In this document: positions 19,263 through 25,440 of the stretch, in pieces
How positions within the stretch are numbered: the stretch's first letter is position 1
Layout: the number at the start of each line of letters is the position of its first letter
From: Thermovirgaceae bacterium
GTDB taxonomy: Bacteria > Synergistota > Synergistia > Synergistales > Thermovirgaceae
Assembly (NCBI GenBank): GCA_040767805.1
Contig: JAXGNU010000001.1
Location: 64,001 to 128,000 of the forward strand
DNA: 64,000 nt
Direction of reading: 5' to 3'
Notes under the pieces: generated by a model
Told to the model about the DNA's origin: nothing
The model's input: only the letters and a program-made list of their open reading frames with translations
Database searches by the model: none
Program-made: the position numbers and the translations under genes

Positions 19263-20078
19263 TCAGGGCTTTTGATCAAGGTCGGTGACGGGGGAATAAA
19301 GGAGGGGGTTCCTGCCCCCCGTGAAGGGAAGCTTTTTCCTGGTCTTGCCAACCATGGCCGGTTCGATGGATACGCTGGCGGTCATCTCCCCCTCGTCGGG
19401 ACAGCGGGTGACCGTGGAACCGTCGGGCCCGAAGACGAGGGACCTCCCGCCGAAGACCTGGCCGCTCCCTTCCCCACTCCGGTTGCAGCCGATCACGAAG
19501 ACCTGGTTTTCGATTGCCCTCGCCCGGAGGAGGGTCTCCCAGTGATCGATCCTCGCCGTGGGCCATTCGGCCGGGATCACGATCAGTTCGGCCCCCGCTA
19601 GTGCCAGGGACCTGACGAATTCGGGAAACCTTATGTCGTAACAAATCGCGATCGCCGACGGGATACCCATGAGGTCGAAAAGAAAGGGGCCCACGCCGGC
19701 CTCGAAAAACAGGGGTTCGTCAAGCAGGGGGAACAAATGGGCCTTGTCATAGGACCCCACGACCTCCCCCGAGTCCCCAATGAAGAAGGCCCGGTTGTAC
19801 AATTCGCCGGTAGGCTCCACCCAGGGCAGGCTTCCACCGATGAGGAAAAACCCCTTTTCGGCGCACGCCCCGGACATCATTTCCAGGGCCGAGGGGCTGG
19901 ACAGGGCATGCTCCCTTAACCCTGCGTTGTCGTAGGAGCAGGTCCACAGTTCGGGCAGTACCACCAGCGAGGGCCCCCCGGGGATCCCTTCAAGGTGTTT
20001 CTCCATCCTGGCGATATTCGCTGAAGGGTTGCCCCACAGGACATCAGACTGGATAATATGTACGGTGAGTTCTTTCAA
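19263..20078 (-). CDS. Carbon-nitrogen hydrolase (nitrilase/amidase superfamily)
   Basis: Catalytic triad E (LPELW), K (YDKAHLF), C (ICYDIRFPE); RARAIENQ. Likely start is TTG at 20078 with GAGGGGG SD; the longer track ORF runs into nikR. Confidence 0.9.
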   Translation of the reverse strand: MKELTVHIIQSDVLWGNPSANIARMEKHLEGIPGGPSLVVLPELWTCSYDNAGLREHALSSPSALEMMSGACAEKGFFLIGGSLPWVEPTGELYNRAFFIGDSGEVVGSYDKAHLFPLLDEPLFFEAGVGPFLFDLMGIPSAIAICYDIRFPEFVRSLALAGAELIVIPAEWPTARIDHWETLLRARAIENQVFVIGCNRSGEGSGQVFGGRSLVFGPDGSTVTRCPDEGEMTASVSIEPAMVGKTRKKLPFTGGRNPLLYSPVTDLDQKP

Positions 20079-20115
20079 GGTCTTTTCCCCCTCGATCCTC
20101 GCTGGAGGTGATTTT

Positions 20116-20523
20116 TTGAACAGACTGGCAAGGTTCAGCGTATCCCTTCCCGCGCCCCTTTTGGAAAAATTCGACTCCTGGGTCGAGACACGGGGTTTCC
20201 GTAACAGGTCCGAAGCCCTGAGAGAGCTGATCCGGCGTTTTATCTCCGAATCATGCTGGGAAGACGGCGAGAAGACCGTCTTCGGGACCGTCACCCTCAC
20301 CTACGATCATCACTCCGGCGATTCGGCCCGGGAAATAACCAGCCTCCAGCATGATTTCGGAGACCTCATAATCTGCTCGACCCACATCCATGCCGACCAT
20401 CACCACTGTTTCGAGAGCGTCGTTTTTCACGGCAGGGCATCCAGGGTCAAGGAGTTCATCCGTCAATTGAGCGGGCTACGGGATGTCTCCAGTTCCGACC
20501 CGGTCATTACCACGATCCCCTGA
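20116..20523 (+). CDS. nikR: Nickel-responsive transcriptional regulator NikR
   Basis: Ribbon-helix-helix RFSVSL...NRSEALRELIR, YDHH, QH, HIHADHHHCFE nickel ligands; TTG start after GGAGGTG SD. Confidence 0.93.
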   Translation: MNRLARFSVSLPAPLLEKFDSWVETRGFRNRSEALRELIRRFISESCWEDGEKTVFGTVTLTYDHHSGDSAREITSLQHDFGDLIICSTHIHADHHHCFESVVFHGRASRVKEFIRQLSGLRDVSSSDPVITTIP

Positions 20524-20552
20524 AGCGGGGAGCCAGGGTCGCAGATCCTCAT

Positions 20553-20570
20553 CGGTGACGACCGTCACCG
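20553..20570 (-). promoter_or_regulatory. Putative bacterial SECIS element
   Basis: Perfect 7-bp stem CGGUGAC/GUCACCG with GGUC loop; loop starts 16 nt after the in-frame UGA; no U-tract on either strand. Confidence 0.6.
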
Positions 20571-20741
20571 TCAGATGCCTCACCCGGCGGGGGCGCATTT
20601 CCCCTTCTTTTTCCTGGGGTTGCCCTTGATGACGATGAGCGTTCGCCCGCGACACTCGGGGCAACGCAACACCTGCTCTTCCTCGGCCAAGTCGAACTCC
20701 TTGCCGCAGGAGGCGCACCGGTAAGTGGTCTTTCCAGCCAT
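20571..20741 (-). CDS. FmdB-like zinc-ribbon microprotein, candidate selenoprotein (53 aa to the first UGA; 56 aa if that UGA is Sec)
   Basis: Manual translation MAGKTTYRCASCGKEFDLAEEEQVLRCPECRGRTLIVIKGNPRKKKGKCAPAG-(TGA 20582-20580)-GI-TGA; two CxxC knuckles; purine-rich SD upstream. Confidence 0.8.
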
Positions 20742-20802
20742 TACTCTCACTTCCTCAGGATGGGCCTTTTCCGCCCGCCACCGCGGAACCAGGGGGCGCG
20801 GC

Positions 20803-21750
20803 TTAAAGATCCCCTATCGTGGATACCATTATCGCCTTTATGGTATGAAGCCTGTTCTCCGCCTCATCGAATACCTTGGAGTTCCTGGATTCGAAGACCT
20901 CCTCCGTCACCTCGTTCCCCTTCACGGCCGGCAGGCAATGAAGGAAAATGCAGTCGGCATTCCCAGTGGCTTTCAGAAGGTCGGAATTGACCTGGTAAGG
21001 CTTCAGCAGGGCCACCCTTTCGGCGAGCTTGTCCTCTTCCCCCATCGAGGCCCAAACGTCGGTGTAGATTGCGTCGGCCTTGCTGACGGCCTTACGCGGG
21101 TCCTCGTAGAATTCGATCGTGGCCCCCGTATCGGAAGCGATCATCCTGCATTCTTCCACGAGGTCCTTTTCGGGGAAGAGGCCTCCCGGGGCGGCGATAG
21201 CGAAATGGATCCCCATCTTGGCCGAACCGATCATCAGGGAATTGGCCATATTGTTCCTTCCATCCCCAACATAGACCAGCCTGAGTCCTTTCAGTTTTCC
21301 GAAATTCTCCTGTATCGTCAGGAAATCGGCGAGGATCTGGGTGGGGTGATACTGGTCGGTGAGGCCGTTCCAGACGGGAACACCAGAGTAAAGGGCCAGG
21401 TCTTCAACAACGGACTGTTTGAAACCACGATACTGTATCCCGTCGAACATCCTGCCCAGGACCTTGGCGGTGTCCTTGACGGACTCCTTGTGCCCCAGCT
21501 GGATATCGTTCTTTCCCAGGAATTCCGGGTGCCCGCCCTCGTCGACGCAGGCCACGGTGAAGGCACACCTCGTCCTGGTGGAAGGCTTTTCGAAGATAAG
21601 GGCGATGCTCTTACCGGCAAGGGTGTTGCCCCTTATCCCCATCCTCTTTTTCTCCTTCAACGAGACCGAAAGGTCGAGCAGGTACTGGATCTCCCCGGTG
21701 GTGAAATCCTTAAGGGTGAGAAAACTTCTTCCTCTCAGGTTGATCGGCAT
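20803..21750 (-). CDS. argF: Ornithine carbamoyltransferase (catabolic context, ArcB)
   Basis: STRTR, HPTQ, DVWASMG, HCLP, AENR; ATG at 21750 with AGGAGG SD. Confidence 0.95.
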
Positions 21751-21794
21751 TCCATTCCCCTCCTGTATTCTTATGAATTGCCGTTTCGGCCTTG

Positions 21795-23027
21795 CTAATC
21801 CCGGGTCAGGGGCATGCTCATGCACCTGGGGCCTCCCCGGCCCCTGCCGAGCTCGGCGCCCTTGACCTCGAAGACCTTTATCCCGTTGGCCTGGAGTACC
21901 CGGTTGGAGACGACATTCCTTCTATAAGTGATGACGACCCCGGGGGCGATCGCCAGGGTGTTGGTCCCGTCATTCCACTGGTCCCTTGCCGCAGCGACGG
22001 GGTCTCCGCCCCCTGTTTCGATGAAACGGATCGTATCAAGGTGGAGCACTTTTCTCAGGCAATCACCCAAGTTCCGGTGTTCAATGATAGAGGTGATCTC
22101 CCCCACGGGGGAGTACTCGAGCTGCCATATCCGGATGTATTCCTTCACTTCCGGGTAAATGGTGAAAGCGTCATGGTCCACCATGGTGAAGACCGTGTCA
22201 AGGTGCATGGCCGCCCGGCTTTTGGGGATATCTACCGCTAAAACGGTCTTGACCCCGGCTTTTTCAGCGATCCTCTTGCCGACGATCTGCAGGGTCCCCG
22301 CCGCGGTCCTTTGGCTGATACCGATGGCAACCACGGAATCCGAGAGGACAAGGATATCCCCCCCCTCGATGCGGTAAGGATAGGTATCGCGAGGGTGGTC
22401 CCCAAAGAGGAATTCTGTGCCTTTGAAATAGGGGTGGTTCTTGAATATGTAGCGGGCGTAGAGTGGTTCCTTTCTCCGGGCCTCGAAGGACATGACACTA
22501 ATTATTACACCTGAATTAATAAATGAGAAGGGATCCCTCTGGAAATAGAGGTTGGGGAGAGGGTGGATCAGGAAATCCCGGTCGCCCATTGCCCTCAGGA
22601 CGAGGCTCCTGCAGGGGGGGAGGATCTCCAGGGCTTCCATTTTTGTGAGGCCGGCGATGAGTATTTCGGCAAGTTCGCTGGCGCTCACTTCCATGAGAAC
22701 ACCCTTGAGGGCCGAGACCAGGGGGATGTCGATAGCCTCAAGGGCGAGCACTTCATCGAGGAGAGAGTCCCTGACAGAGTCTTCCCCGAGCACGTGGGAA
22801 AGGCAATTCCTGAAGTAAACCACCTCCACCCCGTTGTCCCGAAGGAGGTCGGCAAAGGTGTCGTGTTCCTTTTGAGCCTCTTCCAGCCAGAGTATATCGT
22901 CGAAGAGAAGTTCATCCTTGTTGTCAATGGTGAGGCGTTCCAGTTCCTTGCCGGGCCTGTGAAGCATGACCCTTTTCAGTTTACCGACTTCCGACGATAC
23001 GCTGAAAGAACCGTCCTCATTGGCCAC
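21795..23027 (-). CDS. arcA: Arginine deiminase
   Basis: [40 protein letters not shown] catalytic Cys. Confidence 0.96.
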
Positions 23028-23199: not shown

Positions 23200-24054
23200 T
23201 TAAGAGTTTCCCCTTCCCCACATGATCAGGCATTCCCGGGTCAACCGGGCTGCCAGGACGGACGTTATGCCGTTAATGTCATTGGGGGGGCTTACCTCTA
23301 CGATGTCGAAGCCGATCATCCGGAGGTCCTTCATGAGGGTCAGGGCTTGAAGGACCTCCCGGGCCGAAAAACCGCAAGGTTCCGGGGTGCCCGTGCCAGG
23401 GGCCTCTCCCGGGTCGACGATGTCGATATCGAGGGAAAGGTAGACCGGCCTCCGCCCCAGCATGGGGATGACATCCTTCAGGGGGGTCGACAGTTCGAGG
23501 GGGAAGAAGGAGGTGTTATCCCTTCCCCACCGGTACTCAACGGCCGACGCGGACCTTATGCCGAACTGGAAAAGAAGGGAAGGGCTCACGAGACAGCTCT
23601 CCGCAACGCGGCGCATGACGGTGGCATGGTTTTTCCCTGTTCCCCGGTAGCGGTCCCTCAAGTCCGCGTGGGCATCGAGGTGGATGACCGCCAAATCGGG
23701 GTAGATTTCCGAAGCGGCTTCCAACACGGGGAGTGTCGCGAGGTGTTCGCCGCCCAGGGTGGCGACCTTGAGGCCCCTGCGGAAAAAGCTCGAGGAAACC
23801 GCCTTGATAGTTTCAAGGGAAAGGTGTAGGTCACCGGGGGCAAGCTCGATGTCCCCGACATCCGCGAAGGGAACGTCCTGAAGGTCTCCGAGGAGAAGGG
23901 TGCTGAAAGTTTCCAGGTGCCGCGATTCCCTCCTTATGGCACGGGGACCCTCCGAGGTCCCGTGAAGGCGGGATACGGTCATGTCGAGGGGAACCCCCTG
24001 GAGGACCCACGTCACGCCTTTCATGGACCTTCGGCTCGCGATGAACCTGTCCAA
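23200..24054 (-). CDS. speB: Agmatinase / ureohydrolase
   Basis: GGEH, HLDAHAD, SLDIDIVDP, APGTGTP, DIVEV. Confidence 0.92.
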   Translation of the reverse strand: MDRFIASRRSMKGVTWVLQGVPLDMTVSRLHGTSEGPRAIRRESRHLETFSTLLLGDLQDVPFADVGDIELAPGDLHLSLETIKAVSSSFFRRGLKVATLGGEHLATLPVLEAASEIYPDLAVIHLDAHADLRDRYRGTGKNHATVMRRVAESCLVSPSLLFQFGIRSASAVEYRWGRDNTSFFPLELSTPLKDVIPMLGRRPVYLSLDIDIVDPGEAPGTGTPEPCGFSAREVLQALTLMKDLRMIGFDIVEVSPPNDINGITSVLAARLTRECLIMWGRGNS

Positions 24055-24056
24055 GG

Positions 24057-24905
24057 CTACTCGTCCCGTTCGTTCAGCAGTTCTTCCAGGAAAGGAGGGA
24101 GAACAAAAGAGGCCCTGTGGACTCGGTCGGAATAGTAATTGGTCATCCCGGGGAGGGCACTCATCGGTTTTTCGGGGTCATGAACCTTTGACCCCGCCAG
24201 GTAGGTCCACATCCCCGTCGGGTAAGTAGGCATCACTCCCCAGTAAACCTTGACGATGGGGAATACTTTTTTCATTTCCAACGCAGACCCTGTCAGTATG
24301 TCAGGATCAGTAAAGGGAGATTCGGTCTGGGCCGCGACAAGTCCCTCCTCATTGAGCGCTCGATGGACATCCCTGTAAAAGGGTTCGCGGAAAAGCCCCT
24401 CAGCGAAATCAACGGGGTCGGTGCTGTCTACTATAACGACGTCGAATTCACTCTTCTTGCCCCTGACATATTCAAGGGCATCCATCGTCAAAACGGTGGC
24501 CTTAGGGTCTTCCAGGCCGGCGCTCAACGAGGGGAAAAATTGCTTCGAGGCGTTTATGACCTCCTGATCGATATCGACCAGGACCACTTCCTCGACAGTA
24601 GGGTGTTTGACCGCTTCCCGGGCGCTCCCCCCGTCCCCGCCACCAACAATGAGGACCCGTCGCGGGCTCGGGTGGGCCGTGAGGACCACATGGGCCAGCA
24701 TTTCATGGTAAGTGAACTCGTCCTTTTCTGTCACCTGGATCGCGCCGTCGAGGGCCATCAGTCTTCCGTACTGGTCCGTTTCTACTACGAGGAGGTGCTG
24801 GAAGGGAGTCTGGAAATTGGCCAGGACCTTTGTGATGCTCAGGCCCAACCTTAAATGCCTTGTCTGGTACTCGGTGAACCAGATGTCGTTGTGTCTCTTT
24901 TGCAT
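24057..24905 (-). CDS. speE: Polyamine aminopropyltransferase (spermidine synthase family)
   Basis: LDGAIQ, YHEM, VGGGDGG, IVDSTDP; ATG at 24905. Confidence 0.94.
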   Translation of the reverse strand: MQKRHNDIWFTEYQTRHLRLGLSITKVLANFQTPFQHLLVVETDQYGRLMALDGAIQVTEKDEFTYHEMLAHVVLTAHPSPRRVLIVGGGDGGSAREAVKHPTVEEVVLVDIDQEVINASKQFFPSLSAGLEDPKATVLTMDALEYVRGKKSEFDVVIVDSTDPVDFAEGLFREPFYRDVHRALNEEGLVAAQTESPFTDPDILTGSALEMKKVFPIVKVYWGVMPTYPTGMWTYLAGSKVHDPEKPMSALPGMTNYYSDRVHRASFVLPPFLEELLNERDE

Positions 24906-24922
24906 CCCCGTAAACCCTTTTC

Positions 24923-25393
24923 CTAAAAAGGGTAGAAAAGCGGGCAGCCTGCGAAGACGGTCCCGCATTCTCTTACAACGTGATCGATAGCCTTGACCTT
25001 GACCTCCTTGAGGCCCAGCGAGCGCATTGCAAAGGCCTCCCTCACCATTTCCTCGACCTTTATCGCAGCTTCCGACCCTGGGCAAAACCCGGAGAATTCG
25101 AAGATCATTCCGAAAGAATCGGGATCTTCCGGTACGCCCACGCCTATCGCGGCGGAAATGGTCTCACCGGGAACATCGCTGGTGATCGAACCATAGGCGA
25201 TGGGGAGAAGAGAGCCAAAGGGCATCTTAAGTTCCGTTCTGAAAGCGCATTTCGGCGGGAGGACGCTGCTCACGCGGAGAAGGTTCATATTACCGACCCC
25301 GGCATCTAGAAGGGCTGAATCGAAGGACGTCAGTTTCTTTTTTCCCTCACCGCGGCCCACGACGAGCGAAAATAGTTCCGGCACGGGCAACAT
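24923..25393 (-). CDS. pdaD: Pyruvoyl-dependent arginine decarboxylase
   Basis: SFDSALLDAGVGNMNLLRVSSVLPP with the Ser-Ser autocleavage site. Confidence 0.9.
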   Translation of the reverse strand: MLPVPELFSLVVGRGEGKKKLTSFDSALLDAGVGNMNLLRVSSVLPPKCAFRTELKMPFGSLLPIAYGSITSDVPGETISAAIGVGVPEDPDSFGMIFEFSGFCPGSEAAIKVEEMVREAFAMRSLGLKEVKVKAIDHVVRECGTVFAGCPLFYPF

Positions 25394-25440
25394 TACATGG
25401 CAACCTCCCCTCGATGGTCATTCCCAAAAAAGCGCATATC

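Follow-up and report, generated by a model that had tools for sequence, protein, structure and literature searches.

A small zinc-ribbon gene of Thermovirgaceae with a conserved in-frame TGA and a SECIS-like hairpin: a candidate selenoprotein of the Synergistota

The locus

The stretch of DNA considered here (the window) comprises 64,000 nucleotides (nt) of contig JAXGNU010000001.1 of a Thermovirgaceae bacterium (Synergistota; assembly GCA_040767805.1, positions 64,001 to 128,000 of the forward strand). On its minus strand lies a small gene (20741..20574), in which 53 codons are followed by a TGA, the codons GGC and ATC, and a second TGA. The ATG is at 20741-20739 and the sense codons (n=53) run down to 20583, so the product ending at the first TGA is MAGKTTYRCASCGKEFDLAEEEQVLRCPECRGRTLIVIKGNPRKKKGKCAPAG. 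We propose that this TGA, codon 54, is very probably recoded as selenocysteine (Sec) and that the gene encodes a 56-residue zinc-ribbon selenoprotein, with a hairpin behind the second stop codon as its selenocysteine insertion sequence (SECIS). The tail of the MAGKTTYRCASCGKEFDLAEEEQVLRCPECRGRTLIVIKGNPRKKKGKCAPAG product would then be Cys49-Ala-Pro-Ala-Gly-Sec54-Gly-Ile. The elements of the gene are as follows.

20750..20756, minus strand: ribosome-binding site of the small gene, GAGGAAG, read from the sequence and lying 8 nt upstream of the ATG
20583..20741, minus strand: first 53 codons, with a zinc ribbon (C9, C12, C27, C30), a basic linker PRKKKGK and the tail Cys49, from the translation
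20580..20582, minus strand: TGA, codon 54, candidate Sec; TGA in 43/43 orthologs of the Sec type and Cys in 5 Cys-form relatives
20574..20579, minus strand: codons 55-56, GGC ATC (Gly-Ile), which enter the product only through recoding of the TGA; always two codons
20571..20573, minus strand: putative true stop codon, TGA in the window copy and variable among orthologs
20553..20570, minus strand: SECIS-like hairpin with a 7-bp stem CGGUGAC/GUCACCG and the loop GGUC; perfect pairing, wholly after the stop

Inspection of the 18 nt upstream of the orthologs revealed a GGAGG/GGAAG-GTGA box at the position equivalent to the ribosome-binding site. The hairpin begins 9 nt 3' of the first TGA, its loop starts at +16, and by sequence and by a promoter/terminator scan it has no T-run on either strand. 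This layout, a 53-codon minus-strand reading frame with TGA-GI-TGA and a perfect hairpin lacking a U-tract, had been described in a first-pass annotation made from the letters alone, and it was confirmed by the sequence and the translation.

Selenocysteine machinery of the genome

The genome of the window (G000) is represented by an assembly of 1.65 Mb that is 81% complete and has 61% G+C. In profile searches SelA (472 bits) and SelB (66.6 bits) were both found above the curated cut-offs, and the tRNA-Sec reached 77.5 bits, where the gathering score is 47. SelD, likewise above its curated cut-off, is encoded twice (C3:158372-159280 and C5:30458-31390), by one gene with an in-frame TGA (...SHSSG-U-AAKIG) and another without. 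Furthermore, grdA contains an in-frame TGA, and in four grdB-type genes the frames run past the TGA at the expected ...TST-U-GTxTRCG site. SelA, SelB, SelD and tRNA-Sec, on which the earlier proposal of a selenoprotein depends, are all present in the genome.

Conservation of the frame across the TGA

The 53-residue peptide was searched against 19 genomes of Thermovirgaceae, the window's own included. A counterpart of the small protein was found in 19/19 and orthologs in 18/19, all 18 of which end in ...C-A/S-P/A-S/A-G, TGA, exactly two codons, a stop and a GC-rich hairpin. The 19th genome (80% complete) holds a paralog only, which ends in TAG. The 18 read-through products were combined into a profile (A1), which was run over 268 Synergistota genomes, and the 30 best loci together with 20 further loci from other families were read by script. 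These 50 loci hold 51 zinc-ribbon genes, and 43 of the 51, from 8 families, end in a Cys-containing tail, TGA, two codons and a stop (the Sec forms), with tails such as ...GCAPSG, ...KCAGCSASSCST, ...GCGGSCGSCSSG and ...NACPS.

The first stop is TGA in all 43 Sec forms, whereas the second varies (TGA 23, TAA 11, TAG 9); across the window's genome TGA ends 707/1333 crudely called genes. Codon 55 of the 43 Sec forms encodes Gly in 35 cases (GGC 14, GGA 9, GGG 8, GGT 4), Ser in 5 and Ala in 3, and codon 56 encodes Ile in 24 (ATC 12, ATA 8, ATT 4), Val in 7, Leu in 4, Gly in 4, Phe in 2, Met in 1 and Ser in 1. Because the third positions vary while the type of residue is kept, the length is fixed at two codons and the TGA is invariant beside a variable stop, the pattern indicates that the two codons after the TGA are translated sequence and not an RNA motif. 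The conservation of the TGA in homologs, which the first-pass annotation had named as a check, was borne out in 43/43, and conservation runs exactly two codons further.

A word-indexed protein search with the small protein gave only 4 matches, and an exhaustive HMMER search with profile A1 gave 1444 matches at E <= 0.001. Among the 150 matches listed, 139 are proteins of at least 293 residues that match in 6-24 stretches, which are taken to be repeated zinc fingers, and 11 are small relatives, 10 of which end where the TGA would be and one of which is a Cys form. A further search for related loci with A1 returned mostly Synergistota species already in the set.

Cysteine forms and paralogs

The remaining 8/51 genes are Cys forms. 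Four of them, from another class of the phylum, end in ...TCSTCGI, ...TCSICGIN, ...TCSTCGIG and ...TCSTCGIS, each followed by TAA. In alignment A2, which comprises 14 Sec and 5 Cys forms, the residue aligned with the TGA is Cys in all 5 Cys-form rows and the column is invariant (...SCST-U-GI versus ...TCST-C-GI). C9, C12, C27 and C30 are invariant in both A1 and A2. No hairpin follows the stop of the four TAA-ended Cys forms, and a SelA match above the cut-off was found in 0/4 genomes of the ...CSTCGI-type Cys forms (95-99% complete); SelA is above the cut-off in 5/5 sampled Sec-form genomes from four other families. The Cys equivalents at codon 54 that the first-pass annotation had suggested looking for therefore exist in relatives, with none of the four ...CSTCGI genomes showing SelA above the cut-off.

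Cys-tail paralogs with ...CGCH-type ends, from Fretibacterium, other Synergistaceae, a second copy in genome G044 and contig 14 of the window's genome, use TAG, TAA or TGA freely. At one locus, L079 (G044:C1:1675665-1677131), two zinc-ribbon genes stand in tandem, a Sec form (...KCASG-TGA-GI-TAA) lying directly upstream of a Cys-tail form (...CSGCSGCGN). The gene after this Cys-tail form starts ...LGIETSCDET and is tsaD-like, and at L089 and L090 an equal Cys form is likewise followed by a tsaD-like gene. Besides the small gene, the window's genome holds two zinc-ribbon paralogs (C14:14566-14688 and C3:102033-102155, both plus strand), one with a Cys-rich tail, ...GCSGSCRGCTGCRH-stop, and the other without a tail Cys, ...KSWGSKSFSVPKMSD-stop.

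The hairpin after the second stop

Hairpins were scored by a loose criterion (a stem start 6-20 nt after the TGA, 5 bp or more of stem, a loop of 3-5 nt and a G in the first two loop bases) and by a strict one (stem of at least 6 bp, start 8-13 nt after the stop). By the loose criterion a hairpin is present in 40/43 Sec forms versus 0-1/8 of the other forms. The apical loop of a bacterial SECIS recognised by bSECISearch lies about 16-37 nt downstream of the UGA, with a G early in the loop. The window hairpin (loop +16, GGUC) and those of 40/43 orthologs have this spacing, the loop starting 16-26 nt after the TGA in the 40 ortholog hairpins. Among these 40, the 5' stem sequence takes 30 different forms. 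The criterion did not ask for GU in the loop, and 34/40 loops have it (commonest loops GUC 13, GUU 6 and GGUC 5). When the 40 hairpin cores were aligned, double (compensatory) changes were observed at all 7 consensus pairs, and the loop G was invariant; since a hairpin finder chose the core windows, pairing as such is built in. The conservation and covariation of the hairpin, on which the first-pass annotation had staked its proposal, were found in this sense: hairpin in 40/43, stems changed, all 7 pairs with double changes.

For comparison, 151/1329 crude genes of the window's genome are followed by a hairpin under the loose criterion, and 25/1329 by one with GU in the loop. By the strict criterion a hairpin follows 11/707 TGA-ended crude genes, and 4 of the 11 are the GrdB selenoprotein genes. 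In only one other gene of the genome does such a hairpin occur together with a second stop at a distance of exactly two codons. At another TGA of this genome, near 77178 on the plus strand of C6, a 9-bp hairpin with the loop GGUCC stands at +11 and the upstream frame ends in ...LAPETLSSG; it could belong to another small selenoprotein gene or to a terminator, and the long reading frame that the crude finder reports there looks spurious.

Between the small gene and the convergent nikR gene a hairpin could also act as a terminator. It is kept in 5/7 Sec-form loci without nearby nikR and the Cys forms have none, so the hairpin travels with the TGA and not with nikR. T-runs were observed behind some ortholog hairpins (below), which does not exclude a SECIS role, and the simplest reading of the sequences would be a dual one, in which a SECIS lying wholly after the stop codon also ends the transcript. 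The window hairpin may likewise serve as terminator for both the small gene and the convergent nikR, although no terminator was called there by the promoter/terminator scan. The plus-strand "terminators" reported at 20589-20606 fall within the small gene, antisense to it, and were rejected as probable chance calls.

The region is also covered by contigs from four metatranscriptome runs, three of which have it in identical form; this attests presence only. A variant strain is represented in run X4 by a contig of 352 nt (20480-20831) with 7 differences, all at 20511-20550 in the spacer between nikR and the hairpin, and 0 in the hairpin or the small gene.

Is the TGA recoded?

Several observations weigh against recoding. 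Taken alone, the window fold is unexceptional (56-nt fold, z = -0.89, 36/200 shuffles folding equally well), so the hairpin appears to exceed chance only by comparison with other genes. The loop G was required by the criterion and its invariance is not independent evidence. Only 24/43 orthologs pass the strict spacing, the stem starting 14-19 nt after the TGA in many lineages, and 3/43 Sec-form loci fail even the loose criterion, namely L057 (one stem mismatch), the Sec copy in L079 (loop AUUG) and L073 (weak). An Rfam scan of 20450-20800 with E up to 10 found no SECIS family and only a chance-level "mcrA RNA" of 13 bits. At least 5 T within 8 nt follow 13/40 ortholog hairpins, as plain terminators would show (these include loci L053, L060, L061, L063, L064, L066-L070, L077 and L081). 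The 3.5-kb contigs from the RNA libraries span both convergent genes, so no transcription, strand or 3' end can be read from them. One Cys-form genome, G037 (...CPLCNI), has SelA, which we consider compatible with the Sec reading. Finally, the orthologs are related to each other and their counts overstate independence.

If the TGA were an ordinary stop, the product would have 53 residues, the hairpin would be only a terminator, possibly bidirectional with nikR, and the 9 nt between would be conserved as RNA. Public annotation does end the protein at this TGA, which is also the commonest stop in the genome, and the T-runs, the position of the hairpin between convergent genes and the unexceptional fold energy would all fit. 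On the other hand, codons 55-56 vary synonymously, keep Gly and an aliphatic residue and always number two, which argues for a constraint on protein rather than RNA. Moreover, the TGA has Cys as its aligned counterpart in relatives that show no SelA above the cut-off in their genomes, the TGA is invariant beside a variable next stop whereas the Cys-tail paralogs use all three stops, the window hairpin has no T-run, and the hairpin persists where nikR is absent. An ordinary stop is for these reasons very unlikely. Reading through the TGA without SelB and Sec, for example with a near-cognate Trp or Cys at a leaky UGA, would give a selenium-free protein of 56 residues, and conservation of the downstream codons indeed indicates translation but not which residue goes in. 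The genome, however, has the full Sec machinery, and the spacing, stem length and G-first loop of the hairpin are as in its own GrdB and SelD SECIS elements; the aligned residue is Cys, the usual counterpart of Sec, and lineages without a SelA match use a Cys codon and not TGA. Such read-through is the least probable of the explanations considered.

Recoding of codon 54 as Sec is therefore strongly preferred, and the 56-residue zinc-ribbon selenoprotein ending in C-x4-U-G-I with a SECIS-like hairpin, as put forward in the first-pass annotation, is supported by the Sec machinery, the TGA of the orthologs, the Cys equivalents and the conserved hairpin. According to the mechanism that the comparative evidence suggests, when the ribosome reaches UGA-54, SelB with Sec-tRNA(Sec) would be recruited by the hairpin starting 9 nt downstream. 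After insertion of Sec two more codons would be read, and translation would end at the next stop, which abuts the hairpin. Because this presumed true stop directly abuts the hairpin, the SECIS would lie entirely in the 3' untranslated region (3' UTR), and in relatives with a T-run it would probably double as transcription terminator. The tail itself would form a mobile thiolate/selenolate arm.

Genomic context

The neighbours of the small gene in the window are genes of arginine catabolism on the same strand and a convergent regulator gene.

20803..21825, minus strand: ornithine carbamoyltransferase (OTCase) gene, argF/arcB; Pfam OTCace and OTCace_N; 61 nt upstream of the small gene
21795..23027, minus strand: arginine deiminase gene; Pfam ADI, E 7.8e-119
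20029..20523, plus strand: nikR, convergent with the small gene; Pfam NikR_C and RHH_1

The window OTCase and NikR were searched against the ortholog loci by tblastn. The OTCase gene adjoins the small gene in 32/43 Sec-form loci and the NikR gene in 36/43. Neither argF nor nikR was found by tblastn adjoining the Cys forms, nor in L079, where Sec and Cys forms co-occur; the flanks of loci L072-L091 are only about 500 nt long, so absences of neighbours there are weak. The position 61 nt after the OTCase stop and convergent with nikR, given in the first-pass annotation, proved correct, and the link to both neighbours is conserved. The argF-gene-nikR order is old and conserved. Probably the small gene is transcribed together with the genes for arginine deiminase and OTCase, which this order fits. 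By itself the order gives no function for the small protein.

The NikR alignments start at residues 14-31 of the reading frame in most loci (tblastn), so the true nikR start probably lies 15-30 codons inside the listed reading frame. As listed, with a TTG start at 20029, the frame overlaps the start region of an opposite-strand carbon-nitrogen hydrolase frame (19263-20300) by about 270 nt. Directly upstream of arginine deiminase (window 23200-25393, minus strand) there are genes for a pyruvoyl-dependent arginine decarboxylase, a spermidine synthase and an arginase/agmatinase-family protein, so the arginine deiminase genes have a polyamine-synthesis cluster next to them. Adjoining argF in the window, no gene for a carbamate kinase was seen.

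Fold and possible function

In an AlphaFold model made with alignment A1, residues 4-39 form a three-stranded zinc ribbon (pLDDT about 75-83), and the tail is unstructured (pLDDT about 50). A Foldseek comparison of the model with the PDB gave no match at E <= 0.001; its best matches were generic zinc ribbons of MCM, HypA and Rpb12/RpoP (E > 0.05), which are uninformative on function. Zn_ribbon_8, HypA and RPAB4 were matched below threshold in Pfam. The scores of the small protein against the nearest families were as follows.

Zn_ribbon_8 (PF09723): 26.5 bits, below the cut-off of 34.4
FmdB TIGR02605: 23.7 bits, below the cut-off of 31.3
RpoP NF001607: 27.3 bits, below the cut-off of 89; best NCBIfam match
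NF041197: 18.3 bits, below the cut-off of 40; best place in the genome 13.4 bits

An assignment of the protein to the FmdB family was considered. The two CxxC motifs are there, but the assignment is not supported, as both the TIGR02605 and the PF09723 scores are below their cut-offs; the CxxC motifs are 14 residues apart versus 17 in the FmdB family. FmdB-family members often have degenerate Cys-rich C-terminal tails.

The tail is C-x4-U in the window's family, C-x2-C-x4-C-x2-U in other families and C-x2-C-x4-C-x2-C in the Cys forms. The C-x2-C-x4-C-x2-U/C tail has the look of a four-ligand pattern. Because of this pattern, the Cys/His-rich ends of the Cys-only paralogs and the conserved nikR neighbour, we tentatively favour a tail that binds a metal or metalloid, though our confidence in this is limited. 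The Cys-x4-Sec tail could instead form a selenenylsulfide and serve as the redox arm of a small electron carrier for amino-acid fermentation, which we regard as somewhat less probable. In its favour, redox proteins with Cys/Sec pairs make up the majority of known selenoproteins, according to the accessible part of a 2026 review (PMC13188914), the gene follows arginine-catabolic genes in 32/43 loci, and the organism has glycine reductase selenoproteins. However, no redox partner is encoded nearby, the C-x2-C-x4-C-x2-U tails and the Cys/His-rich ends of paralogs are more like a metal site, and nikR is the more conserved neighbour (36/43). A flexible Cys/Sec arm for metal binding or redox chemistry, with metal favoured over redox, is our best guess at low confidence.

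A second gene with the same ending

A pattern search of the window's genome required Cys among the 8 residues at the end of the frame, then TGA, a codon for a small residue, an xTx codon, a stop and a hairpin behind it. Two genes only were returned, the small zinc-ribbon gene and a gene on contig 7 for a 147-residue DUF2703 protein.

G000 C7 ~24976-25419 (L107:1480-1920), minus strand: DUF2703 protein gene, ending ...GGCGSGCGTCGGG-TGA-GGG-ATC-TAG

The tail of this gene reads ...CGTCGGG-TGA-GGG-ATC-TAG; behind it come a 10-bp hairpin and TTTTT. No NCBIfam model matches the 147-residue protein. Judged by its ending, it is a second candidate selenoprotein with an unrelated domain, and the like tail suggests a reusable Cys/Sec C-terminal module. 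The chemistry of such a module, whether metal binding or redox, would be accessible on a very small and easily made protein. A wider hypothesis would combine a Synergistota-wide selenoprotein family, a 3'-UTR SECIS doubling as terminator, and a portable G-Sec-Gly-Ile tail that acts as a selenolate metal arm tied to NikR and thereby to nickel; taken as a whole, this combination is unlikely.

Comparison with known systems

The SECIS of E. coli fdhF is the textbook model of the bacterial element. Within the window's own genome, the SECIS elements of the four grdB genes and selD have a GC-rich stem of 6-7 bp at +10 to +12, a C-G closure and the loop GGC or GGA. The candidate resembles them in its 7-bp stem at +9, its C-G closure and its loop GGUC. 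The grdB and selD elements lie inside the coding region, whereas the candidate lies wholly after the stop and has a T-run in 13/40 orthologs. Bacterial SECIS elements are located inside coding regions according to the accessible part of PMC13188914. If the recoding is true, the small gene would offer a clear case in nature of a bacterial SECIS that stands completely behind the stop codon.

The first-pass annotation had taken it as known that FmdB-type ribbons carry Sec in their C-terminal tails. This could not be upheld, since the published cases found are two reads from Global Ocean Sampling with Sec in a CxxU motif, about which the authors caution that sequencing errors are possible (PMC2398784, accessible part). 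In a table of the 2026 review, the "Putative regulatory protein, FmdB family" is given as UxxU, which traces back to the same study (PMC13188914, accessible part). The small protein is like these, as far as the accessible descriptions go, in its size, its two CxxC knuckles and its Sec/Cys pair with a predicted bacterial SECIS. It differs in having Cys at all four ribbon positions and Sec in the C-terminal tail, and it is below both family cut-offs. Another likeness is to NF041197, the "dual CXXC motif small (seleno)protein" (OS_HP3 or hypothetical protein DW), which has about 53 residues, two CxxC motifs and one Sec. That model, however, matches only residues 6-20 of the small protein, and its Sec motif is RxU or GxU (PMC13188914, accessible part) and not G-U-x-x-stop.

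Public records end the protein at the TGA and label it "hypothetical protein" or "RpoP". For its similar zinc-ribbon fold and size, archaeal RNA polymerase subunit P (RpoP) was considered, and it was rejected, as the score is 27.3 versus 89 bits and the host is bacterial (RuvABC, SpoIID, QueA); the RpoP name is an annotation error. No NCBIfam model covers the small protein above its cut-off. Full-text literature searches gave no paper on such a zinc-ribbon selenoprotein, and Table 1 of the 2026 review PMC13188914, the part of it that was accessible, lists neither a zinc-ribbon tail selenoprotein nor DUF2703; Haft and Tolstoy (2025) may cover the family. In an Aminobacterium genome, deep-Sep reported 13 known and 0 new selenoprotein genes (PMC12013277, accessible part). 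The Aminobacterium protein is in RefSeq in truncated form only, and the Aminobacterium-type ortholog ends in ...CSSG-TGA-GV-stop. If recoding is true, a 56-residue protein found across most of a selenium-rich phylum is misannotated as three residues short, including its likely active residue, and the bacterial selenoproteome gains one more family. New selenoprotein families are reported regularly, so this would be an incremental addition, of relevance to selenoprotein specialists and to genome annotation.

The closest architecture is that of the UXX-star families (Haft and Tolstoy, 2025; NF041211 "gluta_UXX_star_2"), which stand in Table 1 of PMC13188914 together with KCU-star (NF033934), as far as the accessible part of that review extends. 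NF041211 (cut-off 100 bits) has no match in the window's genome at E up to 10, is above its cut-off in 0/268 Synergistota genomes, and is not among the NCBIfam matches of the small protein at E up to 1. The sequences are unrelated, the domain of the small protein being a zinc ribbon, and the comparison draws on the description of UXX-star in the review. According to that description, UXX-star proteins have Gly and then Sec two residues before the C-terminus, so that the SECIS must lie beyond the stop, and automated annotation truncates the protein. The small protein has the same C-terminal architecture, Gly-Sec-X-X-stop (...A-G-U-G-I-stop), which is a likeness of architecture only. The sequences compared here thus support placing the small gene among bacterial selenoproteins of the Sec-X-X-stop type, its putative SECIS lying after the stop codon.

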